The notes under the pieces are model-generated. The model did no database searches, was not told the DNA's origin, and worked only from the letters and a program-made list of their open reading frames with translations. The translations under genes and the position numbers were made by a program. Of a DNA stretch of 64,000 nucleotides, positions 26,482 through 53,225 are shown piece by piece (the stretch's first letter is position 1; each line of letters begins with the position of its first letter). The stretch lies in the NCBI RefSeq assembly GCF_011045215.1, contig NZ_CP049202.1; one strand, given 5' to 3'. The stretch comes from Escherichia coli. GTDB taxonomy: Bacteria; Pseudomonadota; Gammaproteobacteria; Enterobacterales; Enterobacteriaceae.

Positions 26482-26504
26482 TTTCCCCGGTTATTTTCCA
26501 TACC

Positions 26505-28379: not shown

Positions 28380-28392
28380 ACTGGAGAATGAA

Positions 28393-29636: not shown

Positions 29637-29645
29637 TATTACAAT

Positions 29646-30441: not shown

Positions 30442-30454
30442 TTGTTAACTCGAT

Positions 30455-31447
30455 TTACAGGAAGACACAGTTACGTTTACGCCACATCAGGTAGCCGAAG
30501 TTTTTCTTTGTGTTGGGCGGATTTTTCCCGGTTTCCCAGCGGGTCACGCTGCGCCCGAACGGGTGGCACTGTCCGCTGTCCGGGTACATATTCACCATCT
30601 GGTAACGCCAGCGTTCTTTGGGCAGGATTGGGGACGGATATTCATTACAGACGGCGTTATTTTTCCCGATGGTTTCCATAATCATGCCCTGACGGTGCAG
30701 CTTGAACGCCATGCGTTCACTGACCAGCAGGGAGGACTGCAACGGACTGGACTCATTACTCACCCAGCCATTGAACGGGTACATGCTGCCCTGCGAGCCG
30801 GCACACCAGAACAGAACATCGAGAGGCATATTAAAGGCGCTGGCAATCGCATCTGCTGCACAGGCCCCCTGTGCTATCGGATTGGCAAAGATGACAGCTT
30901 CCGGATTGAGAATGGTGGTCAGGCTGCTGTCCGTCCAGGTGGGGTCAATTTCAGAAAGATAAGCGATATCCAGGTCACCACCTTCCAGACAGCCCAGCGA
31001 TGTGATGATGTTAAGCCAGTACGTCAGCGGGTATTTGTACCAGTGAACGTGATAGAACGCCCCGTTCACCTGCTTCTCATCCTTTTTCGCCGTTCCCTGT
31101 GCCGTTTTACCAAAAGCCGGCAGGCTGAAGCCCAGGTTCACCATGCATCCCGGTGACCGGGTGACGTCCGTCAGCGCCATCGGCTCCCAGTAACCAATGG
31201 CCAGCCCGATACGCCTGAACAGCGGCGGCGGTGCCGGACAAATCTGAATGGGCATCGACGGGTTCGCCGTGTCGGGGACCTTACCCTGACTGACTTTGAT
31301 ACTGCCCAGCGAGAGCGGGAAAATACAGCTCCAGCAGATATCCGTGATCGGGTTTACAAAACGCCCCTCACAGGCAGAATCCGCAGACGCCGCAGGGACA
31401 TGACCGGCGAGAAGGAATAACATCAGCAGCCACAGGCTTCGCTTCAT
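30455..31447 (-). CDS. traU: TraU pilus assembly / DNA transfer protein
   Basis: 330 aa, same length as F TraU, signal peptide. Confidence 0.9.
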   Translation of the reverse strand: MKRSLWLLMLFLLAGHVPAASADSACEGRFVNPITDICWSCIFPLSLGSIKVSQGKVPDTANPSMPIQICPAPPPLFRRIGLAIGYWEPMALTDVTRSPGCMVNLGFSLPAFGKTAQGTAKKDEKQVNGAFYHVHWYKYPLTYWLNIITSLGCLEGGDLDIAYLSEIDPTWTDSSLTTILNPEAVIFANPIAQGACAADAIASAFNMPLDVLFWCAGSQGSMYPFNGWVSNESSPLQSSLLVSERMAFKLHRQGMIMETIGKNNAVCNEYPSPILPKERWRYQMVNMYPDSGQCHPFGRSVTRWETGKNPPNTKKNFGYLMWRKRNCVFL

Positions 31448-32076
31448 TTTCTGCCCTCCTCTGCCGGAATAAATTCCACCTTCAGGAAGCGATCGCCGGG
31501 AACGGCGCTCACCCGTGCCGGGACCTGATCAATGCCGAGGCGCTGGCAGAGCACACCGTTCTGGTCAAAGTAAACACGGCTGTCCAGAGACTTCTGCATC
31601 TCCGGGATACTGCCCTGCACGAGGATAATTTTGCTCTCCAGTGTGGGCGGCGTCTGGCGTTTCATCCAGGCCACCTGCGCCGGATCATCGCCATTGATGA
31701 AATACAGCGTCTGGTTAAAAGGAACATACTGCAGCGGATTCATCACTTCACCCTGACGGGCAAACACCCGCCCTTCGTTATCCCGGATATCCGCAGCCAG
31801 TCTGACGGACGGGTCAAACAACCGGCTGCCGTATTTCTCCGTGCGTCCGATACCGGGCACGGCAGGGGGCCGCAGACTGTTGCGGATCACCCGCTCCTTA
31901 AAGGCATCCATTTTCCGGCCCATCTCACCGGACTGCTCCAGTGCCGTCAGGCGCTGCATGATCACCGTCAGCATGTCCGGCTCCTTTACCGGCCACAGAT
32001 CGCCCCAGGTACCAAGATCGGCGGCGGCCACACTCTGCCCCCATATCAGCAGGGCAATCAGCCCCCGGCATCTCAT
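31444..32076 (-). CDS. traW: TraW pilus assembly protein
   Basis: 210 aa from internal ATG at 32076, overlapping the trbI stop. Confidence 0.8.
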   Translation of the reverse strand: MRCRGLIALLIWGQSVAAADLGTWGDLWPVKEPDMLTVIMQRLTALEQSGEMGRKMDAFKERVIRNSLRPPAVPGIGRTEKYGSRLFDPSVRLAADIRDNEGRVFARQGEVMNPLQYVPFNQTLYFINGDDPAQVAWMKRQTPPTLESKIILVQGSIPEMQKSLDSRVYFDQNGVLCQRLGIDQVPARVSAVPGDRFLKVEFIPAEEGRK

Positions 32077-32453
32077 GGTTCCGCCCTCATTCGCCGGGCA
32101 ATATCCTGCTGGATTTCCCGGGTGATATCCGGTGCCCCCTGTACCACAGCAGGCGACACCAGAATGACCGCGTGGTGTTTCTGCTGCCACGCCTGCAGGC
32201 TGGCTTCCAGTGCCGTGTTAAAACGCGCTGAAAGGGCTTTTGACTGCGCTTCTGACAGTTGTTTCTGACTGGCGCTGTCAAAAAACGCATCCACGGTCTG
32301 TTTCATGTTGAAGGCGACAGTCACCGGTGCGTTCAGTCTGACAATGCCGTAACTGACGACCGTATTTATTGCCAGTATCCCTGCCAGCGCCAGCCACCAC
32401 GAATGTCGTGATACCTTCTTTCTTCGGTCTTTTAATTTCACATCAGTACTCAT
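32073..32453 (-). CDS. trbI: TrbI inner-membrane protein
   Basis: 126 aa with one TM helix, downstream of traC region. Confidence 0.7.
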   Translation of the reverse strand: MSTDVKLKDRRKKVSRHSWWLALAGILAINTVVSYGIVRLNAPVTVAFNMKQTVDAFFDSASQKQLSEAQSKALSARFNTALEASLQAWQQKHHAVILVSPAVVQGAPDITREIQQDIARRMRAEP

Positions 32454-32536
32454 AATAATGCCCCTGTTTTCTCTGTTTCCTCTTTGCGGTAATATGCTTC
32501 CCTGATTTTCAGGTAAGTTAAAAAGGTGCGTTTTAT

Positions 32537-33644
32537 ATGACGAAAAAAATCCTCTTATTTTCCCTGATTTTTATTTTTAGTATCACCGGCACTTTTTCTC
32601 TTATGATAAACGGCAAACAGAAAAAAAGTGCAGATAAAATCATTCCCGCAATCAACGCTAAATATAATAATAAATGGCTTACACACAGATTAATAAAAAT
32701 GGACTATGATAATGGAACGGCTTTATCTGTTATTCAGAAAGCATGGAATAACACCGAATACTTCATCCTCTCAGCCAGAAAAAAAATGCCAGTCAGCCAC
32801 AACCACTCTTAATTTTCTTTACTGCACAAATGATTTGCTTGGCGAAATGTTTCCTTATAAGGAATCCAATATGGTCAGCCCGGCATATGCCAGTCAGTTC
32901 TCTGATTGCGATCTGAATGTCTATCTTCTCATTGACGCAGCAAAAGAATCTGGCAGGCAGATTGAGATCATATTCGCCCCCTTCCACGCTTTTATTTCAT
33001 ATATTGATGATAATAATGCAAGAGCATACTGGGAAACAACCGCCAACCATAATAAAGGTTCTGTTGCGGATTTAAATGATAATCACTGGTATCAAAAAAC
33101 ATTCAATAAATTCTATTATGTTCCTCGTAGTGAAAATTACATAGAATCACTCTACTCTGTACTGATTGCAAATAGTGTAGACTCATCACATAAAAAAGAA
33201 ATATACAACAATCTTAAGCCGGAAATAAAAAAGACACCATTAGCCTATGATCTGTACTACAGCATGAAAAATGAAATCTCGTCTCAGGATGCCGAACAGA
33301 TTAATCTTTTGTTAAGAGAAGACATTACCTCATCATATAAACAACTTCTTCTTACCGGATACTTCATTAAAAACAACAATACAGAAGCAGCCCAAAAAAT
33401 CATTGACAACATACGAGCAAAAAACTGTAAATCAGACTGCATTAGGTTTAAGAAAAAAGTGTACTGGTACTTTTTTCCATCATATCTGATCTCTCAATAT
33501 GCATCGGAATTTGGCGTCACACTATCCCTTGAAGATATATATTATTATTACGCATTCAATATTATCATTATTCTGTTTAGTTCCCTTTTATTTTTGCCTA
33601 AAAGCAGAGATAAGAACAAGAAAAGGCGTGAGAACAATAAATAA
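32537..33644 (+). pseudogene. secreted Y/N/K-rich protein gene, antisense to tra, apparently frameshifted at an A8 tract
   Basis: 91-aa ORF with signal peptide continues as a 312-aa ORF in another frame; both frames read KK across the A8 run at 32779..32786. Confidence 0.45.
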
Positions 33645-34004
33645 CAGAGCAGGCACACCCCCATCCATAAGGAAACTCAGGGGGAGACTGCAGGTTACAG
33701 GCACCATGATATAGCATCCCATCACGATCAAAGGGCGATGACGACACAGTTCTGTATATTCATATAACCCGGTTCTGCCATATAAATCCCTGACAAGCAA
33801 AGACGGAGCAATCATAAACAAAACGCTTACAATGGCATAAATCATCAGCACATATTTTGTTTCTCTCAGAAATGGTTCCGGTGTATTTATTTCTGATTCA
33901 ACAAAACGCTCATACCAGTACAGAAACAGGTCGCCACAGGCCACACTGTTAAGGATAAAAAATAAGACAATATCAGATACCTTCTTTATATGACAAAATT
34001 TCAT
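33588..34004 (-). CDS. hypothetical polytopic membrane protein between traC and trbI
   Basis: about 138 aa from internal start; convergent 3' overlap with the plus-strand ORF. Confidence 0.4.
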   Translation of the reverse strand: MKFCHIKKVSDIVLFFILNSVACGDLFLYWYERFVESEINTPEPFLRETKYVLMIYAIVSVLFMIAPSLLVRDLYGRTGLYEYTELCRHRPLIVMGCYIMVPVTCSLPLSFLMDGGVPALLFIVLTPFLVLISAFRQK

Positions 34005-34026
34005 ATATACCCCTTGTGACCAACCC

Positions 34027-36672
34027 TTAACCCCAGTTTCCTGACATTCGTTCGCCGGACATTTCATGCTCTTTTAACCAGGCTTCCAGCGAAGCCATCT
34101 CCGGCCCTGACTTCTTCCACGCCAGCTGCCACACCGCCTCATGAATACTCAGGCCCTCTTTACGCTTCTGCTGCACAAACTCAAAATCCGGGCCGTCGGA
34201 GCTGTACATGGCACGGCTTAACGGGTCCACAAACAGACGGTGCCAGGAGGAATGGTTTTCCACCTGCAGCAGGAAGGAACTGAACCACTGGTCTTTAGCC
34301 GCACCAAACTTGCCAATCATGTCCCGCTGCAGTGGCAGGAACTGGTCCGGGAATAACTGGTTATATTTCGCGAACTCCTTCGCACTCTGTTTGAGGATAA
34401 TTTTGTAGGAGGAGTTACCCCATGCCGCACGGGCCGCACTGGAGGCCTTGTCAGAGTCAAAGTCGACGATGTTCTGTGTGATGGTGATATAGGCACCGGT
34501 ATGACGGCGACAGGTGCGGTAACCTTTTTGAATAAACTCACCGACTTTACGATTTTTGAAGTCCAGCAGACGCCAGCCTTCATCAATGACGTTCAGTTTT
34601 TTGAGAGTACGCGGCGTGCGGTACATCCTGTTCTCGATGTAGATAATCAGGGAGAACATCACCGCAACCAGCAGGGACGGACGGTCTTCCAGTCCACCCA
34701 GCTCCAGCACCACCATTCTGGCATCATCCCGCAGGGACGGTTCATCAGAGTTAAAATACCGGCCGTAAGTGCCGCCAGCGGTATATTGATCCAGAAGGAC
34801 AATCATTTCATCCAGACGGCTGCGGATGGTCGGAGACTCGACATACTGGTCGTTATCACGGGCGTTTTTCAGGAAATCCACCACATCATCGATGCGCGCC
34901 TTATTCTTTTTAGCCAGCCAGGAGGCCCTGACCGCCTGCAGCAGCAGACCTTCATGTACTTCATCCAGGTTACCGTTGGGGCTGGCCATCACCGACAACT
35001 GGTCACGGACACGCTCCGCTGACTGGTCAATATCAGTGATGTTCGCAAACGGGTTAAAACGCAGGGTTTCACCGTCCAGATATACGCCCCCCATGTTCTC
35101 ACACAGGGACTTGTAGCCATCCCCCATGTCGAACACCACGGCAAAGCCCCCGGAGTCCAGCACGCTGCGGATAAGTGGCTGTATCAGTCCGGTTTTACCG
35201 GCCCCGGAGGTGCCACAGACCGCCATGTTGTAGTTGGTGTTATTCATCCCCTTAAAGAAGATATCGATAAACGCCAGCTGGTTACGGTAGGTGGGCGCCA
35301 GCAGACCTGCCGGTGTCAGGGGATTATCCGCCACTAACGGCATCAGGTTGGCCACATTAAAACTCTCTGCCCGCTGTACCACTCCGGCCTCTTTCAGCTG
35401 TTTAAACAGCCCTTTCCCGGCCATAAAGGGCAGGCAGGTCAGGAAATTGCGCATGTGGTTAAAGCGCGGTGAAATCAGCTCAAAACCGTTTTTACGAAAG
35501 CTGTTCAGGATGTCCTGCTCCACTTCCAGTGCCGTTTCATTATTGTCCCTGCAGAAGGCTGTGATGTTGAGGAAGTAGGACACGACAGAAGACTGGCCGG
35601 AGCCCAGCCGCTGGCGCAGTTCCCCCCACTCCTTCGCCTCCTTTTCAACTGACGGAAACCATTTGGCATAGGAGGTCTTCGACTTTTTCTCCAGGTCCAT
35701 GTACTTCAGGTTGGCTTCGCTGTGGGTTTTCACCTGGTCTTCCACCACCAGAGTCAACGTCAGGATGAACGGGCAGGAAATGGACATTTCCGGGTTCAGC
35801 AGATTGCTGTAGTTGTCGGCCATGTTCCACAGGAAGGCGATTTCCGGGTTACGGGCCAGATGGAAATTCAGGATGCGGGCCGTGCTGTTCCTGCCGTTCT
35901 CACGCAGGCCCAGCGTCAGGTAATCAGCCCGGACTTTCAGGTCAAAACTGTCCTCCACACACTGATAATTCAGATCAGAATACGGATCCAGCTGACGTCT
36001 TTTCGGGTACAGAGAGTCCGGATTATGGTTAATCATCTCCCCGACAATCTCGATGAAAGCCTGTGCATCCACTGTCTGTGTGGTGATTTTTGCGCCGTGA
36101 AAAGAGGCACGGATGATTTTCACCAGATTTTCCATTTCCAGAATGTCAGCCCGGCTTTTTTTCTTCGAGGGAGAACAGTACGAGATAAACACCCGGTAAT
36201 GGCGCAGGGTCAGGGGCAGATTCATCCCCTCCGGCAGCGGGAACTGTGTCGCTGCCGCTTTCATATAATAGGCACGGGTAATGGCGTTAAACCGTTCAGC
36301 CTGTTCACCTGACCAGGAGAACTCACGCAGCCCGTATTCAATCCTGTCACCAACCAGCTGACTGGACATCAGATGGATACACAACGGAATACCGCGCGGC
36401 AGTTTGGTGCGCAGCATATGATCGAGAGCCTCCACAATGGACTCATTCGCACCATTGATGGGAATGGCTTCCAGCATAAAGCCCATCGTGGTGTCATTCA
36501 TGAACAGGCCGGACTCCTGGTTGTAATCACGGTACGGCAGCAGACGGCTGAACTGCGGGAAGCTCATCTCACCGAGGATCTGATTAGCCTGAGAGGATTC
36601 ATCCGGTAATTTAAGCGCAGTCAGCAGTGAATTAACCGCCTGAGTGACGGTCTCAAGTGGGTTTTTACTCAT
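34027..36672 (-). CDS. traC: TraC VirB4-like ATPase
   Basis: 881 aa; Walker A GTSGAGKT. Confidence 0.95.
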   Translation of the reverse strand: MSKNPLETVTQAVNSLLTALKLPDESSQANQILGEMSFPQFSRLLPYRDYNQESGLFMNDTTMGFMLEAIPINGANESIVEALDHMLRTKLPRGIPLCIHLMSSQLVGDRIEYGLREFSWSGEQAERFNAITRAYYMKAAATQFPLPEGMNLPLTLRHYRVFISYCSPSKKKSRADILEMENLVKIIRASFHGAKITTQTVDAQAFIEIVGEMINHNPDSLYPKRRQLDPYSDLNYQCVEDSFDLKVRADYLTLGLRENGRNSTARILNFHLARNPEIAFLWNMADNYSNLLNPEMSISCPFILTLTLVVEDQVKTHSEANLKYMDLEKKSKTSYAKWFPSVEKEAKEWGELRQRLGSGQSSVVSYFLNITAFCRDNNETALEVEQDILNSFRKNGFELISPRFNHMRNFLTCLPFMAGKGLFKQLKEAGVVQRAESFNVANLMPLVADNPLTPAGLLAPTYRNQLAFIDIFFKGMNNTNYNMAVCGTSGAGKTGLIQPLIRSVLDSGGFAVVFDMGDGYKSLCENMGGVYLDGETLRFNPFANITDIDQSAERVRDQLSVMASPNGNLDEVHEGLLLQAVRASWLAKKNKARIDDVVDFLKNARDNDQYVESPTIRSRLDEMIVLLDQYTAGGTYGRYFNSDEPSLRDDARMVVLELGGLEDRPSLLVAVMFSLIIYIENRMYRTPRTLKKLNVIDEGWRLLDFKNRKVGEFIQKGYRTCRRHTGAYITITQNIVDFDSDKASSAARAAWGNSSYKIILKQSAKEFAKYNQLFPDQFLPLQRDMIGKFGAAKDQWFSSFLLQVENHSSWHRLFVDPLSRAMYSSDGPDFEFVQQKRKEGLSIHEAVWQLAWKKSGPEMASLEAWLKEHEMSGERMSGNWG

Positions 36673-36798
36673 ATGAGTATTCCTTAGTGCGTTTAAAAAA
36701 GGAAAATATCAGTCTGTGGGCCGTGGATATATCACGCAGTGCCATTCTTAAAACCACAGCACAAATAAGAGATGGAGGCTTTTAACAGGAAAACAGGA

Positions 36799-37161
36799 TT
36801 AACGTTCCTTTACTGAATGAGCATCATTTAATGCCTGAAGTTGTTTTTCGCGTATCTTATTGCGCTCGTTTTCTCTTACCCGTTTCACCTCTGCCATTTC
36901 GTTTCTTTCTCTACACGCTGATGCAAGCTCTTTTGCCTTACCAAGACTTAAAGGTTCAGGCTGATAATCAGATGTGTCAGACTTAATAGCTTCCTTAAAT
37001 GCTTCTGCTGCACAGGGGGTATCCTGTGTAATCTCTGTCAGTTGTTCTGGTGTTGCAGGTTGTTGCTCAAGGTAATCATTGTAAAAAAGACCACATATCA
37101 ACATAGCCATAACACCAACAAATATAAAAGCCAGAACAGATTTTAAATATATCGACTTCAT
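36799..37161 (-). CDS. hypothetical single-TM protein (traR-traC gap)
   Basis: 120-aa ORF, hydrophobic N-terminus, charged C-terminus. Confidence 0.45.
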   Translation of the reverse strand: MKSIYLKSVLAFIFVGVMAMLICGLFYNDYLEQQPATPEQLTEITQDTPCAAEAFKEAIKSDTSDYQPEPLSLGKAKELASACRERNEMAEVKRVRENERNKIREKQLQALNDAHSVKER

Positions 37162-37406
37162 TTCATTTTAGCCTTATATAATTCCCATTGTCGGATATAC
37201 TCCTCATACTGAGCCACTGGCACATTAACGATGACTCCGGCACACTCCAGTTTATTAACCGGTTCAGTAAATGCGCCTGTCGGTATATTCACTTCCAGAA
37301 ATTTACAGTCATTTTTCCAGTATCTCCCGACATCCAGTTCATCCATCGTGAATGACTGACTGGCGAACACAACAAGCGTAATAAAAGAAAAACATCCAGT
37401 AAGCAC
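37158..37406 (-). CDS. hypothetical small protein (traR-traC gap)
   Basis: 82-aa ORF with N-terminal hydrophobic segment. Confidence 0.4.
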   Translation of the reverse strand: MLTGCFSFITLVVFASQSFTMDELDVGRYWKNDCKFLEVNIPTGAFTEPVNKLECAGVIVNVPVAQYEEYIRQWELYKAKMK

Positions 37407-37558
37407 ACTACAAACTAATATTTTTCATCTGCTGATCTGCAGACTGAATTTTTCAGGGATAACAAACATAGCCAGTAAGTTAACAACACAGATAACCACA
37501 AGAAAGAGACACAGGAATATAAACCAGTCGATATTATTTCCTTCGAAGTAGTAAGCTC

Positions 37559-37777
37559 TCATTGCCCACCACCATTCAGTGTTTCCATCACATTGTTCAA
37601 AGGTTCATTTGTTTTAACTTCAATACACTCCCCTGTATTTCCAAAGCCCCTGCCTCCATGCGCTTCGATTGTCCGAAGAACCTGCACGCATACGTCCGTA
37701 TTTGGCATGGGAGTAACATTCCAGCTTCCGCCACCGTTAATATTTTTTATCAGCACAAGAAAAATAAAGGTATGCAT
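37559..37777 (-). CDS. hypothetical small secreted protein (traR-traC gap)
   Basis: 72-aa ORF with signal-peptide-like start. Confidence 0.35.
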   Translation of the reverse strand: MHTFIFLVLIKNINGGGSWNVTPMPNTDVCVQVLRTIEAHGGRGFGNTGECIEVKTNEPLNNVMETLNGGGQ

Positions 37778-37855
37778 TCTTTATTACCTCCAGTTAAATA
37801 TTAATCACTGAATATTCATTCAGTTAACTATGAGGTCAGAAACACCGCAGATTTT

Positions 37856-38329
37856 TCATTCGGATTTACTCTCTTCAGAAAACTGCCGGATGGTATCCTG
37901 TTCACGCTGACGAGTGGCAGACTCCTGCATTGCATCCACTTTCTCCTGCCAGAGACGCCGGATATCCTTTTCATCCCGACCAGTCAGTTTTTTACCGGAC
38001 AGCAGACGGTTAAGCAGTTCCTGTCTCGCATCCGGTATGTCTTCAGTCAGACGCATAAGCTGAAGCAGGCTCTGACGGCTGAGGACCATGAGTGATTCTG
38101 GCAGGAGGGTGAAGAAGCAAATAAAACAGCATACCGCACCACTGCAGGCAAGGACCGCAAACAGGATTTTCAGATATATACCATCAACGCCGAACGCAGC
38201 AATAACACAGGGAATCCATGCAATACACGCACAAAACGCCAGGATGTTATATATTCGGTTATGTCTGCGATATATCTGTTGATGTTCATCCAGAATAAAA
38301 TCGATTTTTTCAGCTTCTGATTTATGCAT
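37856..38329 (-). CDS. hypothetical membrane protein (traR-traC gap)
   Basis: about 157 aa from internal start MHKSEAEK...; two hydrophobic helices. Confidence 0.45.
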   Translation of the reverse strand: MHKSEAEKIDFILDEHQQIYRRHNRIYNILAFCACIAWIPCVIAAFGVDGIYLKILFAVLACSGAVCCFICFFTLLPESLMVLSRQSLLQLMRLTEDIPDARQELLNRLLSGKKLTGRDEKDIRRLWQEKVDAMQESATRQREQDTIRQFSEESKSE

Positions 38330-38543
38330 AGTGTTTCCTCTGCCTTTCCTGATACGCCTGACATTCAACACATAACGTCACACCGGGAAATATTTTCCGC
38401 CGGGCTTCCGGAACAGGATTTCCGCATGCTTCACAGAGATAAACAGGAATACCATGAACATTTATTTTCTGGCGTATCCGGTTTATTCCTGTCATGGTCA
38501 GTTGTTCTGTCACTGAATATGCTTCATCGGCTTCATCACTCAC
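38322..38543 (-). CDS. traR: TraR DksA-like zinc-finger protein
   Basis: 73 aa with C4 zinc finger (CEACGNPVPEARRKIFPGVTLCVEC). Confidence 0.85.
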   Translation of the reverse strand: MSDEADEAYSVTEQLTMTGINRIRQKINVHGIPVYLCEACGNPVPEARRKIFPGVTLCVECQAYQERQRKHYA

Positions 38544-38677
38544 GGAATATTCCTCCCGACATGTTCTGACACGCTACCGCCCATCCCTTTTCACGCACAG
38601 GGCACTCGTTTTACAGGCAGATTTTGAATACAGAAAGCCCGCCGGCATTGCCGGCTGATATACAACTTCAGGGCCAG

Positions 38678-39193
38678 TTAATTAATACGTGGTTTTCCCC
38701 ACGCAGACGGTTTAATAACAAAAAACACACTGGATGGCTGATGATAAACATCCTGATTATCAATATAAGGCGCTATCCATAATGCTGCCGTCTGCTCACC
38801 CGTTCTTAGCGGACGGGGAGGCGTTACCGGCACAACTGAACTGACCGGAACAACCGTTTTCACTTCCCGGGCAGCGGTAAACAGCGGGCGTGGCGCCAGC
38901 AGTTTCTGCTCCGGAAGTGCCGTCACCGCAGGTCTGCTGCCGGACGGAGTGGTCGCGGTGACGGTCTGCACCGGCATTGTCCGGAAGTTCCCTTCAGCCA
39001 GGCGCGGCAGTGATGCCGCAACCGGCTTTGCTTCTGAGGACTGCTCCAGTTTTTTGGCCTTATCATTGGCCTGCTCCATCGTCATACAGGTATCGGATGT
39101 GGTGGCGTTACACTCAAATTCCGTACTGGTTCCGGCACAGCCGGAAAGTAATAAGGTCCCCAGCAGAGGAATAAATAAAGAAATCTGTTTCAT
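38678..39193 (-). CDS. traV: TraV outer-membrane lipoprotein
   Basis: 171 aa; lipobox LLSGC. Confidence 0.85.
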   Translation of the reverse strand: MKQISLFIPLLGTLLLSGCAGTSTEFECNATTSDTCMTMEQANDKAKKLEQSSEAKPVAASLPRLAEGNFRTMPVQTVTATTPSGSRPAVTALPEQKLLAPRPLFTAAREVKTVVPVSSVVPVTPPRPLRTGEQTAALWIAPYIDNQDVYHQPSSVFFVIKPSAWGKPRIN

Positions 39194-39441
39194 TGTCCCT
39201 CACCTTTCTCATCGCAGTTCACAAAATCATTCTTCAAATCCCTGACCGTACAGGTTTTTACAATGTCAGGATTTTCAAAAACCGTACTCCGTGATGATTT
39301 ATAAACATATGCCACAATGCGTTTCCCACCCGCATCAGGTTCTGGTGCACTGACTTCACATAACGGAGGTGTTATTCCGGACTCATACAGCACCGGATAA
39401 TTTATTTTTTTGACGCTGCCATCAGAAACCAGCTTATTCAT
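39190..39441 (-). CDS. trbG: TrbG-like protein
   Basis: 83 aa, same size and position as F trbG. Confidence 0.5.
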   Translation of the reverse strand: MNKLVSDGSVKKINYPVLYESGITPPLCEVSAPEPDAGGKRIVAYVYKSSRSTVFENPDIVKTCTVRDLKNDFVNCDEKGEGQ

Positions 39442-39754
39442 CGAAGGGGTCCTTATATTTCTGAATAATTCTGTCGATTAGTTCTTTCACCGGAACAGAT
39501 TTTCCGCCACCGGATTGTCCGGCAACCACAATATGCCCCGGAGAAGAAAATAAACTCATCGACATACCCTTCTTCATCACACCGACAGCAGCCATATTAA
39601 AATTGTCCGGCAATGACTCAGAACCGAATTTCTCCGGTGCAGGAAGGACGATTCTTGTGGCGCAGTTACTGAGAACAGCATGAATAAAATCATCTGACAC
39701 GGTTTTACCCGGCACAGAGAGGGCTGTAATAACATTAATATTACGCATGTTCAT
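39434..39754 (-). CDS. ORF at the trbD position with a C-terminal Walker-A-like motif
   Basis: about 106 aa from internal start; GQSGGGKS motif near the C-terminus. Confidence 0.4.
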   Translation of the reverse strand: MNMRNINVITALSVPGKTVSDDFIHAVLSNCATRIVLPAPEKFGSESLPDNFNMAAVGVMKKGMSMSLFSSPGHIVVAGQSGGGKSVPVKELIDRIIQKYKDPFDE

Positions 39755-40331
39755 TTTTATCTCCGTTGTTTCTGATTGTTCTGTCATCAGGGAAATAAAC
39801 ATGGCATTCCCTGATTTTTCCCGGCAGGGAAGTGTCTTCTGCAAGAACTTCCTTCAGACGCTCATCTGCAGTTGCCACCCGGACACATTTCATTTTTCCG
39901 GGTCGCATCGGATATTTTCCGGAGATCACCGCCAGCGAGACATACATCAGTGCCAGCGTTGCCCATAATGCGGTGAACAGTTGCATCAGAGACTAGTCAG
40001 TCTCCCTGGCATATTCTGCAGCATCCCCCCGGCGAAAACCGCACGTTACAGACGGAGGCATCGCTAAATCGGAACCAAAACTGTTCGAGCAGTATCGGAC
40101 CGGATACAGCCCGGCTGGCGTTCTGCCCCTTACAAACTCGATCTCCTGAACCAGCAATTTCCCCGGTGTGGTGTTGTCCTTCCATAAAACAAACAGAGCC
40201 ATCAGGGCCATTGTGGCCAGTGGCAGAATGACGGCGTATTTCAGACACCAGAACAGTCCTCGCAGAACCCGGGCGACAACATACCGGGCGGCATGGCCCG
40301 CCTGACGGGACGACGTATTATTTGCCATCAT
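39741..40331 (-). pseudogene. traP: traP interrupted by an in-frame amber codon
   Basis: 112-aa and 81-aa ORFs share one frame, separated by TAG at 39993..39995; total about 196 codons as F TraP. Confidence 0.6.
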
Positions 40332-41745
40332 TGCCCCCTCCCTGACTGCCGGACATAAACTGCTGCGGATTCAGGTTGCCCAGTTGCTTCAGCATCTGGT
40401 CAGTATTAAAGCCGTTAAGATGACTTTCAGCTGATGGCGGAACAGGAACCGGACTTTCCGGATTGTCTTCTTCCGCTCTGCTCTGCGTGCGTTCCAGCGC
40501 CATCTCTTCCACGGTTTTCAGCTGGAAGCCGTCCTGGAACACCACGGTCACTTCGTTGCCCGCACCAATCGGTATCACCGGGTGATACTGTTCGGCACGT
40601 TTGATGTAGTAGTCACTTAGCGTCTGTGCGGCTTTCGATGCGCCGCCACCGATACCCATTTTAAGGACATCGCCGACCCCGTAAGCAGCAGTGGCACCCA
40701 GCCCGACAGCCGGCTGGGAGGCGCGCTCCATTCCCTGACCGATACCGTCAACAAATCCCGCGCCCCATGCCCAGCCGAGGATTTTGCCGTTACGCATCAC
40801 CACTTCGCCCTTGATACCGTTTTTACCCCGGAAGCTGACATGCCCCTTAATCGGCATATCAATGGTTTTGCCGTCCTTCAGGCAGCTGATATTGCGGGTG
40901 CGTACAATGGCACGCTCACTGGACACATCCCCCCAGGCTTCCAGACCCACAAAACATCCCGTTGCGTCATACGTCTTGCTGTTCGGCATTTCCACCAGGC
41001 CGGTGATACGCAGCTGCATCGGCACCGTGGATTCATTACCGGTGACAGAGGCATTGGCATCAGCCCCTTCAATCAGCATGGCTTTCGCAAAACTTCCTGA
41101 CGGAATGTACGGCAGTGATGGTCCCTGTTTTCCCTCATTACGGGTAAACACCTTACGCTGTATCCGGTTAGGTACCGGCACAGACTGGTACGTCACCTGT
41201 GGTGGTGGCGTGACACCATTCCCGGGATAAAACGCCGTCGGCGGTGGAACAGCAACGCTGCCCTGCGGCGGGAAGGATACGGGGGTGTTTCCTGGCTGTG
41301 GTTCGCCTTCCGGGCCGGGCGGTGAGGCAGGCATCTGCGGTACAGGCTCACCGGTCGCCGTGACGGGATTAGCACCCAGGGCTTTTACCTGCTCTGCCAG
41401 GGCGGCATTGTCCTGTCCCAGCTTTTCAATACGACGCTGGTCATCACCGCGCTGTTTGTTCAGAACATCCAGCTCACGACGGATTTCCTCATACTGCTTC
41501 TGCATCTGCGCTGCCGTCACCTGCATCTCGGTGGTGGCATGCTGACGCACCTTGTCATCAAAGGTCGTATCCACCACACCGGTCATATCCGGCACAGGCT
41601 CCTGTTCAGCCACGGTTTCACCGTTACCGGACATGTCCACATCAGACAGATACAGTGCCCCACCAATCGCGGAGGCTGTACCGACAACCACAATCCCCAG
41701 CCACAGGTACTGCTTGCGTTTCACAATGGTATTGATACTGGCCAT
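40318..41745 (-). CDS. traB: TraB VirB10-like protein
   Basis: 475 aa, same length as F TraB; proline-rich linker. Confidence 0.9.
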   Translation of the reverse strand: MASINTIVKRKQYLWLGIVVVGTASAIGGALYLSDVDMSGNGETVAEQEPVPDMTGVVDTTFDDKVRQHATTEMQVTAAQMQKQYEEIRRELDVLNKQRGDDQRRIEKLGQDNAALAEQVKALGANPVTATGEPVPQMPASPPGPEGEPQPGNTPVSFPPQGSVAVPPPTAFYPGNGVTPPPQVTYQSVPVPNRIQRKVFTRNEGKQGPSLPYIPSGSFAKAMLIEGADANASVTGNESTVPMQLRITGLVEMPNSKTYDATGCFVGLEAWGDVSSERAIVRTRNISCLKDGKTIDMPIKGHVSFRGKNGIKGEVVMRNGKILGWAWGAGFVDGIGQGMERASQPAVGLGATAAYGVGDVLKMGIGGGASKAAQTLSDYYIKRAEQYHPVIPIGAGNEVTVVFQDGFQLKTVEEMALERTQSRAEEDNPESPVPVPPSAESHLNGFNTDQMLKQLGNLNPQQFMSGSQGGGNDGK

Positions 41746-42473
41746 CAGTTGCCCTCCCCGTCACGGATGACATACACATCCATGCGCGCACCTGCCAGTA
41801 ACTGGCTGGCAGGCTGGCTGAACATCACGGCACGGGTTCCCGGCTGCCAGAAGTCACTTTCCCGGATATTCAGGGCAGACAGCGTTTTATTTTCCACGGC
41901 AAAGCGGACCATCTTCAGGTGATTCCCCGTCCATACGGCATCTGCCACTGAAGACAGCCCCGCCGGGGCCTGCAGGGTTTCCTTTGTCACCGGGACCTGA
42001 TACCAGCCTGCGGGTAATTTTCCGCCACGGACGGCCTGGCTGATGGTCACAAGCAGGGATTCGTAAGGCGTGGACGTTTCCCACGCACCGGCTTCTTCTC
42101 CGGTTCCGCGCAGGTCACTGACCAGCTGAATGGTACGCCCCGCGCCTTCACGGGGAACGGCCTGAATGGAAAGATTCAGACCACGTTCTGTTTCCAGAAT
42201 GAACGTAAAGGGCTTTTTGTTGACGGTGGCAACCACCACACCGCCGGAGGCGGTCTGCTCATTATTGGTCAGGGCACCATCCAGACTGTTCACGGCGATA
42301 ATCCGGTCACCGGGAACGGTAAACAGATTCGGGCTGGTATTGCTGATGGCAATACTGGCCTGACCACCGTTCACCATTGGCACCACGGTGGGGGCCAGCG
42401 TACCGTTTGCGGCCATCACGCTGCAGGAAAAAAACAGGCTGCCGAATATTATTGCCGTATTATTTTTTCTCAT
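41745..42473 (-). CDS. traK: TraK secretin-like protein
   Basis: 242 aa with signal peptide. Confidence 0.9.
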
Positions 42474-43026
42474 CGTCTGTTTCCCCGAAATTATCCAGCC
42501 AGGTCACCCCGTTTTCCCGCTTCAGAATAAGGATGTAATGTTTGATATCAGTGAAAGGTTTTGAATCACCAATCCAGGTTTTAAGCACACCACGAATTTC
42601 CACACGGCCATACTGAGGCCAGACACGAACACTGGTCTGGAAAAAGGCTGAGTTCACGTTATCGTTTTTAATACGCTTCGCTTCTTCAGCCAGAATAACT
42701 TTCATCTGGTTCTGTGCGCCCGGACGGATATATTGCAGAAGCGCCTGATGTGAGGCATCGACGGTTTCTGATGAAACATTCAGGCGGAGGGCAATAAATG
42801 ACAGCGCCATCTGCTGTAAATAAGAGGCATCTGCACTATTCTGCGACACGGCAAAGGGGGCATTAAATGCCATTGGCGTCACGGCAGTGCGTTGCTCATT
42901 CTGAAGACGGTAGTTATTCACCCCCTGAATGACGTTAACAGAGAGGCTGAGAACAATAAGCACTGACATAAATATAAAGGCGATGGCCATTACACGACTG
43001 GTACTTAAACGGGCACCGTGTTCCAT
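42460..43026 (-). CDS. traE: TraE pilus assembly protein
   Basis: 188 aa with N-terminal TM helix. Confidence 0.9.
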
Positions 43027-43047
43027 ATAACAATCCTGGTATCAGTT

Positions 43048-43359
43048 CTATTTAATCCACTGCCGGAAACACGAATCGGGAATATTATGAAAAATACCGC
43101 GCAGCAGGGCTGTTGGCATATACCAGTAAATCAGGTCACGTAACCAGGAACTGCCCCGCCCCTTTTTCAGTTTTTTAATCCCGAAATAAACCAGAACCGC
43201 TGCACCAATACCGAACAGATATTTCGATGTTGTGATACCCCAGCCAGTACAGATTGCTGCGGGTATCAGTTCATCCAGTGGCAGGCCAAAGTAGCGGCTC
43301 TGGTTGGTCAGTGTTTCCGGGAAACGATATTTCTTAAGTTTATTCTCGTCTCCCGACAT
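43048..43359 (-). CDS. traL: TraL pilus assembly protein
   Basis: about 100-aa membrane ORF between traA and traE. Confidence 0.8.
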
Positions 43360-43373
43360 CGTTTTATTTCCTG

Positions 43374-43733
43374 TCAGAGGCCAACGACGGCCATACCCAC
43401 AGCAATAAATACAGAAATGATGGCAAAACCGGCCAGGAACTTGACGTTTTTGGTCATCATGTACATGACCGCACCGACCAGAACTTCAGCCAGAACAACC
43501 CATTTAACAACACTGGAGTCCTTACCGAAGGTCGCCTTAACCGTGGTGTTACCGCTTGCCATCAGGTCCTGGCCCTGTGCTGCCATTGCCAGCTGCGGGA
43601 AGAACATCATCAGAACAGCAGCCGGGATCACAGCGCGAACCAGGCGAAGCATATTCAGACGAGTGAATTTAGAAAAAAACGACTTCTTTTTGACGGGCGC
43701 AGAAGCACCCTGAACACTTAAAACGGCGTCCAT
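43374..43733 (-). CDS. traA: TraA propilin (F-type)
   Basis: 119 aa; ...[75 protein letters not shown] near-identical to F-like pilins. Confidence 0.95.
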
Positions 43734-43775
43734 ATGATTCCTCTGTTTAATATTGATAGTAAAAAATAAAACTCT

Positions 43776-43991
43776 TTATATATCGTCTATGTCTTCAGCT
43801 TCCTCCTTTACTAAAGATGCATTATAAAAGTCGGGAAAACGATTGAGATGATCTTTTAGTCTAATGAACACCTCATTAGTTTTTGTTCTTCCGCTACGAT
43901 CCCTGGCTGCTAAAAGTTTCTGATTAGTTGTCTCATCCAGTATTAATAAGACTTTGTTACCTGGTGCGGCTCTGGTTCTCCCTCTGCTCAC
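43776..43991 (-). CDS. traY: TraY ribbon-helix-helix oriT-binding protein (non-ATG start likely)
   Basis: 71 aa resembling the short R100-type TraY. Confidence 0.75.
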   Translation of the reverse strand: MSRGRTRAAPGNKVLLILDETTNQKLLAARDRSGRTKTNEVFIRLKDHLNRFPDFYNASLVKEEAEDIDDI

Positions 43992-44126
43992 GTTCCCTCC
44001 GCATAATTACTTGAGATAATAAAATATAATCATATAAATCATCTTTAATGAAAACAAAAATAGAGTAAATTATATTAACAAAAACGGGAACCAATGGTTC
44101 CCGCAAAATAACAAAAAGTTAACAGC

Positions 44127-44774
44127 TTATCTTCCCAATATTTCTTTTACTTTAGCATATAAAGGAAGTATCTTTTCCGTTCTAATCATTTCATCCAACC
44201 AGAGATCTCTAGAACTAAATCCATATCGTTTAAATAATTTCATGGTTTTCTTCTTTGATTTAGACACAGTGATGTTCATCTTTGCTGATGAATAATGATG
44301 GCTAAACCCTATCAGATATGGCTCAATGCCTACATATTCATCAGAGGGTACAATTAATTCATTGGAGTATTTAGACACAACAAACGATGACAGATTATCA
44401 TTTGCTACCCAAATAAACCTCCAGATGAAGAAATAGCCGCATGGTGTTATAACACTTTCTATGATCACACTCCATAACGTATTATTAAGTAATATGTCAT
44501 TATTACAATTTACACCATAAATAGAAGAGCATGATTCAATCTCTGCTCTGGATAACTGTAATTTACATTCCAACGTTAAACTATCAAACCATTCATCACA
44601 TGAATTAAAGGACGATCTGATAAGTTTTTCAAAGCAGTTATTTTCCTTAATAAAAGAACCATCCTCGAAGCGGATACATACAGGATATTTTAAAAACGAA
44701 ATAGCCTCTCCAAGACTATGAGGGAAATGCAATTGACTGATGAGTGCTCTTTCTCTACGATCCATCGCACACAT
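44127..44774 (-). CDS. traJ: TraJ transfer activator
   Basis: 216 aa from ATG at 44774 preceded by GGAGG; position between traY and traM. Confidence 0.7.
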
Positions 44775-44857
44775 AGGAACCTCCGTTAAGGATTCTATGG
44801 ACAGTCGATGCAGGGAGTGGCTGCTCCCTGCATCGGCGATTTTCAGTTTCAATTTTT
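44771..44857 (+). ncRNA. finP: FinP antisense RNA (approximate ends)
   Basis: plus-strand stem-loop over the traJ RBS/start, then perfect stem-loop GATGCAGGGAG...CTCCCTGCATC followed by a U-rich tail. Confidence 0.45.
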
Positions 44858-44964
44858 AACGTGGCATTAACCACGTAATCAATATACTAATTATTCTGAT
44901 TATTGTCATCAGTTCGAACCATAAAAAACTCTGATATTTGAACAAAGTCAAAATTTATTTCCCT

Positions 44965-45348
44965 TTATTCATCATCATTTTTTGGAAAGAACCTTTCCAT
45001 CTCAACCGACACCTTCTCTCTGATATCTTCAACCATATTGGCATATTCAAACTTCGGGTTTCCGGAAACATGAGGGCTAAGAGACTCAATACCTAAAATC
45101 TTTGCCACTGTTGACTGCGTTTTTACAACACATTCAAGAAGAAGTTTATTAAACTCTGCCTGATTAAATGCTGATTCTTTTCGTTCCATCTGCGCTTCAT
45201 AAACTCGCAATCCTAACTCAAGCAACATAGAGGCAATACTTGAATAACTAACATCTTTCTCTTTTGCTCCCTCTGCTCGCCTCTGCACAGCAATAGCATT
45301 TATTTTTTCAGACACATGGTCATTAACATAAACCTGAATTTTGGCCAT
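44965..45348 (-). CDS. traM: TraM relaxosome accessory protein
   Basis: 127 aa; closely resembles F-like TraM. Confidence 0.9.
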   Translation of the reverse strand: MAKIQVYVNDHVSEKINAIAVQRRAEGAKEKDVSYSSIASMLLELGLRVYEAQMERKESAFNQAEFNKLLLECVVKTQSTVAKILGIESLSPHVSGNPKFEYANMVEDIREKVSVEMERFFPKNDDE

Positions 45349-45779
45349 AACACACCTTATTTATCTTCCTAAACAAACAATATGTTTTCGTGCTCTCTAT
45401 TCTTCACCTTACGACGAATCGCCATTAGATTCATCATACTAAAATTACGATTCACTATACGAATCAGCAATCATCAAATGACGAATCTAATATAGATTCA
45501 CGCGCCAAGTAAATAGATGTTTTCAAAAAAATAGTCATTACTGAATCATTGACAATTCGTGATAGATTCACTATCGAATCTATCACGAATCCCTGCAATA
45601 TAATTCAAAATTATATAATATAAATACACTTCATTAATTACATGATTTAAAACACAAATCAGCAAAAACTTGTTTTTGCGTGGGGTGTGGTGCTTTTGGT
45701 GGTGAGAACCACCAACCTGTTGAGCCTTTTTGTGGAGTGGGTTAAATTATTTACGGATAAAGTCACCAGAGGTGGAAAA
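45349..45779. promoter_or_regulatory. oriT with nic site between 45688 and 45689 on the plus strand, plus TraM-binding repeats
   Basis: TTTTTGCGTGGGGTGT/GGTGCTTTTGGTGGTGAGAACCACC matches the F oriT nick region; GAATC/GATTC repeat motifs at about 45400-45590. Confidence 0.85.
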
Positions 45780-46289
45780 ATGAAAAAATGGATGTTAGCC
45801 ATCTGCCTGATGTTTATAAATGAGATCTGCCATGCCAATGATTGCTTTGATCTTTCAGGCCGGGATTACAAAATAGATCCTGATTTACTGAGAGCAATAT
45901 CATGGAAAGAATCCCGTTACCGGGTTAATGCCATCGGTATTAATCCGGTAACGGGATATGGCAGCGGACTGATGCAGGTAGATTCCCAGCATTTTAACGA
46001 ACTGGCCCGCTATGGAATTAATCCGGAACATCTGACAACAGATCCCTGCATGAACATTTATACCGGTGCTTATTATCTGGCAATAGCCTTTAAAAAATGG
46101 GGCGTCTCCTGGGAGGCCGTTGGTGCATACAATGCCGGATTCAGGAAGACCGAACGCCAGAACCAGAGACGTCTTGCCTACGCATCAGATGTTTACCGGA
46201 TTTATACCGGGATAAAAAGCAGTAAAGGTATCCGGATTCCGGCCACGAAGAAATCACTTCCGGAAATTAACAGCGTGCAGAACAATTAA
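45780..46289 (+). CDS. lytic transglycosylase, gene X / orf169
   Basis: 169 aa from ATG at 45780; signal peptide; SLT-like core. Confidence 0.85.
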
Positions 46290-46707
46290 TCTTACAGACA
46301 TTGTCAGATACCGGTTATGCCGCAAAAGCGGCATGGAAGGCCACACACAAAAATATCATATGAGTGACAATACTGACTGGCCGAAGCCCCGCGAAGCGGG
46401 AACCCATCTTATATATACCCGGTAACTGCGCAGCCTCCTGCCAGACCATTTTTCGCGGGCACAATATTTACAGACAACCGGAAAGCCAGTTGATGAAATT
46501 GAGGTATATCAGACGACACAGCGATGCCGAAGAATGATAATATAAGTAAAGCCCCGAAAATTTTTCGGGGCTTTACTTATATTATCATGACTTCCACTTT
46601 CTGAACTGTTCGGCAATCACCCATAACGCCTTGTTGATTCTTATATCACCATCAATACCTGTAATGGCTCTTGTCCTAGTATTTTTCCCGGAGGCACTTT
46701 GCCCCGA

Positions 46708-47406
46708 TCATCCACCTTTTATCATATTCTCCTGAACCCGCTGCCAGGTTGTCCAGAGATCGTTCTGTTTATCCTCCCAACGATGGGGAGTAATTATCTG
46801 TTCAGGCGTCACTGGCGTTTTATTTTCATCTTCATACCTGACCATCAGTGCAGCTCTGCTAAATAAATGTTGCTCGTCACTGTTAAGATGAATTTCTTTC
46901 ATCGCCTCCATATTATCAGTGACCTTATCAAAGATACCGAGTACTTCATACGCTCCCTCGATAACCTGCTCGACAATATCACCTTTATGTGGAACGCGGA
47001 TTTCGCCAAAATTATTTCCGCACACCAGGCCATTTGTGCAGACAAAACGAAAAATTCCGGGGATCATCTGATAACTGGATGAACCATCATGTGAATTAAG
47101 CAGGATAATTTCAGGAACTTCCTGCCCGTTAATATGCCCTTCCCTGCGAAGACGTAACATATGTTTACTGTATTCGCGACGTCCCAAATCACGAACCCGA
47201 CTCTGACAGGCAAAGAATGGCTGGAAACCTTCATCACGTAACTTATTGATGATATTGATTGTTGGAATATACGTATAACGTTCACTCCGGGACTCATGTT
47301 TATCACCGGAAAATACCGAAGGCACGAACTGCATTAATTCATCATCCGTTAAAGGACGTTCACGGCGGATGGAATTATACCGACCAAAACGGGAAGCTAA
47401 TCGCAT
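46708..47406 (-). CDS. leading-region hypothetical protein (orf273-position)
   Basis: about 232 aa from internal start; conserved position next to gene X. Confidence 0.5.
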   Translation of the reverse strand: MRLASRFGRYNSIRRERPLTDDELMQFVPSVFSGDKHESRSERYTYIPTINIINKLRDEGFQPFFACQSRVRDLGRREYSKHMLRLRREGHINGQEVPEIILLNSHDGSSSYQMIPGIFRFVCTNGLVCGNNFGEIRVPHKGDIVEQVIEGAYEVLGIFDKVTDNMEAMKEIHLNSDEQHLFSRAALMVRYEDENKTPVTPEQIITPHRWEDKQNDLWTTWQRVQENMIKGG

Positions 47407-47524
47407 AACAGCTACTCCTTTATGAAAGAATAAATTTAATAAAAAATTTTTCCGCTTAATATCATCCCTCCTGGTCACCATTAACAAGATTGCAACAATC
47501 AGGAGGAATATTCATCACATCCAG

Positions 47525-47811
47525 TCAGCAGATCGCCCGGATATCGAGGCCGGCACGCTTAATCTGACGCAGGAACTGTTTGAAGTGATCGGCTTCCGCA
47601 ATGTTGATATGGCGGAACTGCGTATCCACACCCCGGCTGAGCGCGTAGCTATAGCTGAAGGCCATCTTTTCCGGGTGGCTTTTGCGATATTTTTTCAGCT
47701 CAGTCAGGCTGCTGAATTCTAGGACGTCCCACTCTTCCCCGGTGTTTTTTTCTTCCCGGCAACAAGAAGCGTGTACGACGCGGTGTTAACGTGGATATTT
47801 CGGGTACTCAT
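47525..47811 (-). pseudogene. orf95-like leading-region gene with a frameshift in an A7 tract
   Basis: MSTRNIHVNTASYTLLVAGKKKTPG then stop; a 1-nt shift at 47745..47751 restores a 95-codon protein. Confidence 0.5.
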
Positions 47812-47837
47812 CCTGCTTTCTCCTCTCTCTGGTTTTC

Positions 47838-48380
47838 AGCCCCCATCATCTTTTGAGTTTCGGGAGCCGCGGTTTTGACGTTTTGCGGGGACCTGCCTTT
47901 TGTTCCCTCCGGTATTCACCATCATCTTTTTGAGAACCTTCGCCGCAAGGGGCATCACTGCCACGGCCGGAAACGACTGTCCGGGGGCAGACCGCAAAAG
48001 TTTTTGCCTGCTTCTGGGCAAAAACTTTTGCGGGATGTGCATTTCACCCCTGGACTGGCGGAGACGGTTGTGGCTGTATCAGCCCCCGGCGACAGGGGAT
48101 TAAACAGGTGAATGGCACCGGACAGAACAACGGGCAGGGACCCGCCGCAGCGACGTGAAGCGCGGTTTGCGAAACGGCGTTGCCCCTTACATCCCGGCGG
48201 CCTTTTGCCGGGATGCCGGGAGCGCAGGCCACGGCGCGACAGAGGCGGCGCGACCGGAACGGTCGCTGCAAGCCCGGGGTTTCGCGTCAGGGATGGAAGC
48301 CCGCCAGGGCGGAGACAGCTTCGCTGGCTCCGTTCACGACAGCCCGCCCCGCCAGGGGGACGCCCGGAAAAGGCATAAGC
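47838..48380. repeat. ~540-bp structured repeat, copy 1 (candidate single-strand promoter, Frpo/ssi-like)
   Basis: about 95 percent identical to 53226..53790; contains perfect 15-bp inverted repeat GCAAAAGTTTTTGCC...GGCAAAAACTTTTGC and longer imperfect arms. Confidence 0.6.
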
Positions 48381-48709
48381 AGGAGAACAACAAAACAGAC
48401 AATAATCAGGGCAGCAGTAATCAGAGTCAGAACAGGAGGAAAAAGAGAATAATCAAAGGGAAGGTGATGTGATTTCTGACAGGTCATAAACAGAGAAGGC
48501 GGGGGAAAAGAACGGGCGCCGCAGGCGCACGTTCATCCCCGTTCCCGGAGGGAAACGGCCTTCCTGGCAGTCTGGTTGTTCATGCCCGTACAATGCCAGC
48601 AAGGAGAAAGGGGCCACCGGCGAACCAGCAGCCCCTTTATAAAGGCGCTTCAGTGCAGTCAGACCAGCATCAGCCCTGAAAAGGCGGGCCTGCGCCCGCC
48701 TCCAGGTTG

Positions 48710-48868
48710 CTACTTACCGGATTCGTAAGCCATGAAAGCCGCCACCTCCCTGTATCCGTCTCTGTAACGAATCTCGCACAGCGATTTTCGTGTCAGATAA
48801 GTGAATATCAACAGTGTGAGACACACGATCAACACACACCAGACAAGAGAGCTGCGTGGTAGTTTCAT
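48710..48868 (-). CDS. hok: Hok/FlmA membrane toxin, with overlapping mok-like frame to 49009
   Basis: [52 protein letters not shown], near-identical to Hok. Confidence 0.85.
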
Positions 48869-49142
48869 GGCCTTCTTCTCCTTGCGCAAAGCGCGGTAAG
48901 AGGCTATCCTGATGTTGTCTAAGCATGCAGGGGCCTCGTGGGTTAATGAAAAATTAACTACGGGGCTTTTGTCCTTCTGCCACACAACACGGCAACAAAC
49001 CACCTTCACGTCATGAGGCAGAAAGCCTCAAGCGCCGGGCACATCATAGCCCATATCCCTGCACGCTGACCACACTCACTTTTCCTGAAAATAATCCGCT
49101 CATTCAGGCTGTTTACGGGTAATCTGTGTGATTGTTGCCGCA

Positions 49143-49862
49143 TCACGCTGCCTCCCGGAGTTTGTTCGGCACCATCCACCGCTCCATCTCACGGACAGCG
49201 TGACCGGCCTCTCTTGCTGCAAGACTGGCTTCCGCAATAACCTGCCAGAACGGCATATCCTGCCACTGCCAGCGTTCCATTCCGGACAGTGACGGAAAAC
49301 GCTCGCCCCACTGCCAGAACAGGGTTTCCAGGTCATGCTCTGCCACCCGGTCACTCCAGCGTGCATGCCAGCTTCCGACTGTTTCCGGCGAATGGAATGC
49401 CAGTTCGATTTCAGCCTGAGCGACCAGCTCCTGGTACGCACGGGCTTTCTGCTCTGCCTCCCGTGCCTGCTGGCGGCTGTACTTCTGCATGACCAGCGCG
49501 GATTTATGGCGACTGCGCTCCCTGACACGAAACCGCACCGACGGAAACAACCGCTCTGCTGCATCACCGGGAAGGGGAAGGAGGCAGACCTCGCCCTGTA
49601 TTTCAATCAGCACATCGATGACATACAGCCACTGAAGACGGTTGCCGTGCAGTTCTTCTGCGGTCAGGGACGGCATGAAAAATCGCAGGTCAGACAGCGA
49701 TATCCTGCGGCTTCCGTTCAGACAGCGGAAAAACGCCCCCGCATACGGATATTCCGCCAGCGTGTTACCCTGATGGCGGCGTTTTTCTGTCTCCGCCACC
49801 GCCCGCCATGCGGCCTGTTGCTCTGTGCTGAGCGGAACCAGTGCCTGTGAACGTACGCTCAT
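49143..49862 (-). CDS. psiA: PsiA
   Basis: 239 aa, directly downstream of psiB with overlapping stop/start. Confidence 0.85.
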
Positions 49863-50296: not shown

Positions 50297-50347
50297 GGTA
50301 TCTCCCTTGCTGCCGCCCCGTCTCCGGCGGGGCGGTGTGGTTGTTCA

Positions 50348-52306: not shown

Positions 52307-52369
52307 ATATTTCTCCTTTGACCGGGATGGTTGTATGTCTGCCGGACGCGTTCCCGTCCGGCACCTCTC

Positions 52370-53205
<836 letters not shown>

Positions 53206-53225
53206 GATGTGTCTCCTTCTGTTGA

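Follow-up and report, generated by a model that had tools for sequence, protein, structure and literature searches.

The closest described counterparts of the gene considered here are the traP genes of the plasmids F and R100, which lie between traB and trbD and encode proteins of 196 aa (F TraP, WP_000002792.1) and 188 aa (R100 TraP, WP_000896599.1). The topology given for F TraP has two helices, Leu25–Trp49 and Leu118–Pro141 (PMC7555446). Reviews that cite Anthony et al. 1996 assign TraP an accessory role, that of stabilizing the assembly complex or the extended pilus, and they state that traP mutations affect pilus extension only minimally and that F conjugation can proceed without TraP (PMC7555446, PMC10516633). 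We analyzed a 64-kb stretch of DNA, called the window below, in which the reading frame of traP is interrupted by an in-frame TAG.

An amber codon at position 113 of traP

The traP gene of the window occupies positions 39741..40331 on the minus strand and consists of 196 codons plus a terminal stop. Translation of this strand gives 112 residues, the TAG, and then 83 sense codons, the last 81 of which begin with an ATG; the peptide context is RETD immediately before the stop and SLMQLF immediately after it. The premature amber codon is codon 113, which lies at 39993..39995, is read from 39995 to 39993, and appears as CTA on the plus strand. The 5′ part of the gene (39993..40331, minus strand) is an ORF of 112 codons plus the premature TAG and encodes membrane helix 1 and a variable periplasmic loop. 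The 3′ remnant (39741..39992, minus strand) is in frame and undecayed and encodes membrane helix 2 and a conserved C-terminal tail. Within this remnant, a second ORF of 81 aa (39741..39986, minus strand) begins in the same frame at an ATG (39984..39986) located 6 nt after the TAG. The original prediction of two same-frame ORFs of 112 and 81 aa that are split by a TAG, and that together match F TraP in size, is borne out by this translation, with 196 codons in the window and 196 aa in F.

The gene occupies the position of traP in an F-type tra operon, in the order traB-traP-trbD-trbG-traV and with every gene on the minus strand. Upstream, traB (40318..41745, minus strand, 475 aa) overlaps the start of traP by 14 nt; the syntenic gene carries the traB annotation in relatives, and PF03743 is listed for the identical Logan gene. 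Downstream, the start of trbD (39434..39754, minus strand, 106 aa) and the end of traP overlap by 14 nt. The trbD product matches the NCBIfam profile NF010282 (TrbD) with 230.7 bits against a cut-off of 194, and the gene has its own GGAG, 6 nt 5′ of its start. It is followed in operon order by trbG (39190..39441, minus strand) and then by traV (38678..39193, minus strand). The same gene order is found in F, R100, and four relatives, with trbG annotated only in F, pBCE049-1, and pEC404/03-1. In an ORF survey of the window, the other tra ORFs from traM to finO were all of F-like length, including those of traI (1756 aa), traD (717 aa), traG (948 aa), traH (458 aa), traC (881 aa), and traB (475 aa), and by this measure they look intact.

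The two halves of traP match the same protein family end to end. The N-terminal fragment aligns with positions 1–113 of the 197 in the NCBIfam TraP profile NF010299 (158.5 bits, E 1.3e-46), and the C-terminal fragment aligns with positions 117–197 (125.6 bits, E 1.6e-36). Each fragment alone is below the cut-off of 177 bits for this profile, and together they sum to 284 bits. In addition, the identical Logan gene (5′ part) is recorded with Pfam PF07296. When the stop is replaced by Gln, the restored protein has the same total length as F TraP and is 77% identical to it, and it is 67% identical to R100 TraP. Two hydrophobic helices are present, as in F and R100 TraP, together with the conserved series RETD-x-SLMQL...GKYP...PGKMKC...PDDRT..NGDKNEHA. 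In a Kyte-Doolittle analysis of the restored protein with 19-residue windows, the hydropathy reached at least 1.6 only at centers 34–43 and 124–129, with peaks centered near residues 38 and 127, consistent with two membrane helices and in accord with the F TraP topology cited above. The stop falls just before the second predicted helix, so that helix 2 and the conserved C-terminal tail would be lost. Conservation in the protein alignment is highest in the segment that follows the stop (RETD-x-SLMQL ... NGDKNEHA).

When 5.8 billion proteins were searched, 282 relatives were retrieved. The length is 180–199 aa in 112 of the best 120 cluster representatives, which indicates that TraP is normally intact and that the truncation described here is an exception. 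The alignment column that corresponds to codon 113 contains Arg in 100 of these best 120 representatives, Gln in nine, and Leu in one.

In DNA alignments, codon 113 is CAG in the plasmids pBCE049-1, p727A3-78K, pEC404/03-1, and pESA139_1 and in an SRA contig from SRR28636963, and it is CGG (Arg) in F (reference sequence NC_002483.1) and R100. The window has an A at plus-strand position 39995 in place of the ancestral G, which on the coding strand is a single transition from CAG (Gln) to TAG without an indel. None of the six reference genes (those of the four close plasmids, F, and R100) has an internal stop in traP. In contrast to the window gene, whose frame is broken at codon 113, those of F and R100 are intact, and the idea that reference traP genes might also be split at this codon did not hold.

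The nearest traP found is that of pBCE049-1 (NZ_CP042247.1; from a bovine mastitis E. coli isolate, China), which has the same traB-traP-trbD-trbG-traV order and shares 589 of 591 traP nt with the window. One of the two differences is the TAG, in place of which pBCE049-1 has CAG, and this is the sole nonsynonymous difference between the two genes; the other, a synonymous CGT/CGG difference, is the only one found in the 3′ remnant. The two plasmids are less alike around the gene, with the flanking 5 kb only 98% identical. Because the remnant is undecayed and has only one synonymous difference from pBCE049-1, we consider the event to be recent. The tetranucleotide CTAG is also rare in the window, with nine occurrences against ∼248 expected from the base composition, and CTAG depletion is well known in enterobacterial DNA; the CTAG in traP is therefore most readily interpreted as derived and young.

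Megablast searches with traP matched 3,603 PLSDB plasmids and 2,964 complete E. coli genome records, and no identical traP was present in PLSDB or in the complete RefSeq E. coli genomes. The exact 29-nt context of the TAG had no matches in GTDB representative genomes or JGI metagenomes. Among the collections searched, the TAG allele is confined to a single lineage. As the source of the transition, a deamination hotspot at a Dcm site was considered and rejected, as the mutated base lies in the context CCAGT and not in CC(A/T)GG.

These results make it very probable that the window belongs to a natural conjugative plasmid of the F-like type (IncF, MPF-F) whose traP has recently acquired a spontaneous CAG (Gln-113) to TAG nonsense mutation. 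Of the origins offered in the original prediction, the one supported is thus natural nonsense mutation of a dispensable gene, by the single C-to-T change from the CAG of the closest plasmids, by the unsplit genes of F and R100, and by an assembly of SRA reads that also has TAG (described below).

The downstream start codon and the symmetry around the stop

The in-frame ATG 6 nt past the stop raises the possibility that translation reinitiates at 39984..39986 to yield a split, partly functional TraP. A 112-aa piece (helix 1 and the loop) and an 81-aa piece (helix 2 and the tail) could then co-assemble, and continued translation would limit polarity on trbD, trbG, and traV. The 81-aa ORF starts exactly at helix 2, the downstream remnant is undecayed, and translational restarts near nonsense codons are well documented for lacI of E. 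coli and rIIB of phage T4. However, a very recent mutation equally predicts an undecayed remnant, TraP halves are not known to complement each other, and a split architecture of this kind was seen in no other lineage. We rate a restart low because a single Shine-Dalgarno-like motif precedes the ATG, a GGGAG that stops 15 nt short of it and is sequestered in a hairpin stem. A split TraP is thus an unlikely account of the locus, if the best placed of those that compete with simple loss of the gene product.

As for read-through of the TAG, the stop codon is not conserved, and every aligned relative has a sense codon at this position. ARAGORN detected no suppressor tRNA (CUA anticodon) in the window. 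A supE-type suppressor inserts Gln and would therefore restore the ancestral residue exactly; natural suppressor hosts are rare. The earlier suggestion that this is a suppressible amber allele is trivially true, as it is of any amber codon, but there is no sign that suppression is used. The sole ARAGORN call in the window was a tRNA-Thr (GGT) at 22451..22522 on the plus strand, which lies wholly inside traH (21899..23275, minus strand) and is probably a false positive.

The stop lies, as originally predicted, within a near-perfect inverted repeat that contains ACTAGT. This repeat, GAGACTAGTCAGTCTC in the plus-strand reading (39989..40004), has 6-bp arms (GAGACT and AGTCTC) and a 4-nt spacer (AGTC) that holds the mutated base. 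The mutation converted the ancestral plus-strand sequence GACTGGTC into the perfect 8-bp palindrome GACTAGTC (39991..39998), within which ACTAGT (39992..39997) is the sole SpeI site in the window. The arms of the repeat are identical in the four close relatives and in the SRR28636963 contig, and the 6-bp repeat is absent from F and R100. The repeat is native coding sequence for Glu-Thr-Asp-Gln-Ser-Leu, and the predicted energy of the RNA hairpin is −11.4 kcal/mol for both alleles. Across the window, the geometry of 6-bp arms and a 4-nt spacer is shared by 37 inverted repeats, and there are 304 16-mers at least as self-complementary as GAGACTAGTCAGTCTC, and 212 perfect 8-bp palindromes; the inverted repeat is no more than expected by chance. 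Taken over spacer lengths, the window contains 32–43 inverted repeats with 6-bp arms per spacer length against a naive expectation of 15.6, an excess of about 2-fold.

The SpeI site carries no independent information, because any CAG-to-TAG change in the native context GAC CAG TC yields ACTAGT. Both the site and the 8-bp palindrome arose incidentally through the base change, and the emphasis that had been placed on them was misplaced, as they follow from the native sequence and a single substitution. A functional hairpin or terminator was also considered and rejected, given that the arms consist of ordinary coding sequence and lack conservation in F and R100, that neither strand has a T-run after the repeat, that the fold energy is equal in both alleles, and that 37 like repeats occur in the window. 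In F (L008) and R100 (L010), where the codons read RETDRSL, a perfect 10-bp palindrome, TGACCGGTCA, which contains an AgeI site, is present at the same center. On this comparison, the center of symmetry is old, and its central dinucleotide would have been CG (as in F and R100), then CA (as in the close relatives), and then TA (as in the window).

This symmetry bears on a second way in which the base could have changed, namely quasi-palindrome correction, in which the imperfect coding-strand sequence GACCAGTC would have become the perfect GACTAGTC through a short template switch during replication. It is precisely this substitution that renders the 8-mer fully self-complementary, and the CAG lineage can be described as the F/R100 palindrome broken at its central dinucleotide. 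However, only 3 bp pair on each side of the mismatched dinucleotide, and documented E. coli quasi-palindrome hotspots have arms of roughly 9–18 bp. C to T is the commonest spontaneous transition, the 6-bp repeat is unaffected by the change, the allele does not recur in any other lineage or collection searched, and a single event cannot distinguish the two mechanisms. We therefore regard templating of this base as improbable, slightly more so than the split TraP discussed above. The same low probability attaches to the broader proposal that a split TraP made by reinitiation keeps some function and that the mutation may stem from a very short quasi-palindrome correction. If either were true, the locus would be a small natural case of a gene fission rescued by a restart, or of templated mutagenesis with minimal arms.

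Authenticity of the base and the natural setting of the plasmid

A sequencing or assembly error at a true CAG was considered as an alternative. Two observations would suit such an error: the TAG allele is known from a single lineage, and other seemingly broken traP genes in public data are artifacts or doubtful. The latter include one with a scaffold gap of Ns (L011), one with many indels (L014), and one with a frameshift in a G6 run (L007). The change in the window is, however, a substitution rather than a homopolymer indel, and the same base is present in an independent assembly from SRA reads. In an exact-sequence look-up in the protein collection, the 112-aa product was found on a single contig, Logan SRR11014969_132 (41,267 bp), and the 81-aa product was found on two, this contig and one from SRR28636963. 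SRR11014969_132 and the window agree at every base over 6,339 bp (100% identity), TAG included, and the run is possibly from the same isolate as the window; no mention of SRR11014969 was found in the literature. Because the change is a substitution and a separate read-based assembly agrees with it, an error in the consensus is very unlikely.

We do not claim recurrent natural loss of traP from the other interrupted genes. Besides the gap in L011, two of them are cut by contig ends (L012 and L013), and L014 is unconvincing as a genuine loss, since its four indels and several frameshifts look like assembly noise. In L007 (Logan SRR28636963_1216, 1506..2095, corresponding to 39741..40331 of the window), traP is nearly identical to that of the window and CAG is intact, and the lesion is a −1 frameshift that affects the G6 run located 35 nt 5′ of the position of the TAG and gives ORFs of 114 and 81 aa. 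The traB gene of this contig is called as fragments too, and the traP lesion may be independent or may be an assembly error.

The rest of the plasmid was compared with known relatives. The leading region (46000..64000, on the psiB, ssb, and parB side) shares 99.8% identity with ∼90-kb plasmids from fecal samples of UK cattle (CP057013 and others), and the tra region (1..46000) is 93–98% identical to farm-animal plasmids, its best matches in the database. Judged from these alignments, the plasmid is a natural mosaic.

Within the tra operon, non-F cargo is present at 32537..34067, between trbI (32073..32453, minus strand) and traC (34027..36672, minus strand). It comprises ORFs of 91 aa (32537..32812, plus strand), 312 aa (32706..33644, plus strand), and 159 aa (33588..34067, minus strand), none of the three with an NCBIfam match, and pSA31IncF has hypothetical proteins at the equivalent place. 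The gap between traR and traC (36799..38371, minus strand) holds four small ORFs of 171, 72, 82, and 120 aa. Hypothetical proteins likewise fill this gap in R100-type plasmids (R100 and pSA31IncF), whereas F has no genes of such kind there. Three further ORFs had no NCBIfam match, namely 1032..1769 (minus strand, 245 aa), 3124..4416 (plus strand, 430 aa), and 16865..17668 (minus strand, 267 aa), the last of which sits between traD and traT.

A laboratory origin of the allele, also raised in the original prediction, is scarcely credible either as an engineered amber codon with a diagnostic SpeI site or as a linker insertion, for although a stop that coincides with a new, unique 6-cutter site is a common design in site-directed mutagenesis, the native context alone gives ACTAGT upon this change, the gene length is unchanged, the gap-free alignments contain no linker and only one base difference (which rejects an engineered insertion), the repeat arms are native and the flanks identical to natural plasmids, the livestock-type mosaic backbone has no exact database twin, and no vector or marker sequences were noticed in the ORF survey of the window.

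Consequences for TraP and comparison with F

We propose that the plus-strand G-to-A change at 39995, by making codon 113 amber, would end translation after 112 residues, before the second transmembrane helix. No full-length TraP would then be made, the product would be missing its most conserved portion, and the plasmid would still transfer, with at most a mild pilus defect. Transfer is probably little affected, because the reviews call TraP accessory, its dispensability being taken here from reviews that cite Anthony et al. 1996. Judging from its gene content, the plasmid is probably still conjugative.

Polarity on the downstream genes is expected to be weak. From the TAG to the start of trbD, 238 nt of mRNA would be left untranslated, and these are not C-rich but richer in G (C 0.22, G 0.26); with the separate GGAG of trbD, strong Rho-dependent polarity would not be predicted. 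TraP is intact in nearly all F-like plasmids, so that selection evidently acts on it in nature, and losing it may be costlier there than laboratory assays suggest.

The traP of this plasmid should be annotated as a pseudogene (Q113*). The mutation is an ordinary pseudogenizing one, and both the accessory gene and the system to which it belongs are already well known. The isolate, if available, would offer a ready-made natural traP-null for asking what TraP contributes outside the laboratory.

The traP mutant of Anthony et al. was reportedly built in the laboratory with an inserted marker. As that engineered F insertion mutant is described in passages of a review (Anthony et al. 1996, via PMC7555446), full-length TraP was lost, as in the window, and the rest of the tra operon was complete; the effect on pilus extension was minimal and conjugation was kept, and by analogy the same phenotype would be expected for the plasmid studied here. 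The window adds one natural F-like plasmid that lacks the accessory TraP and keeps every essential transfer gene, which fits laboratory reports that TraP is not required. Unlike the F insertion mutant, its allele is a natural single-base amber mutation, with both halves of traP still in frame.
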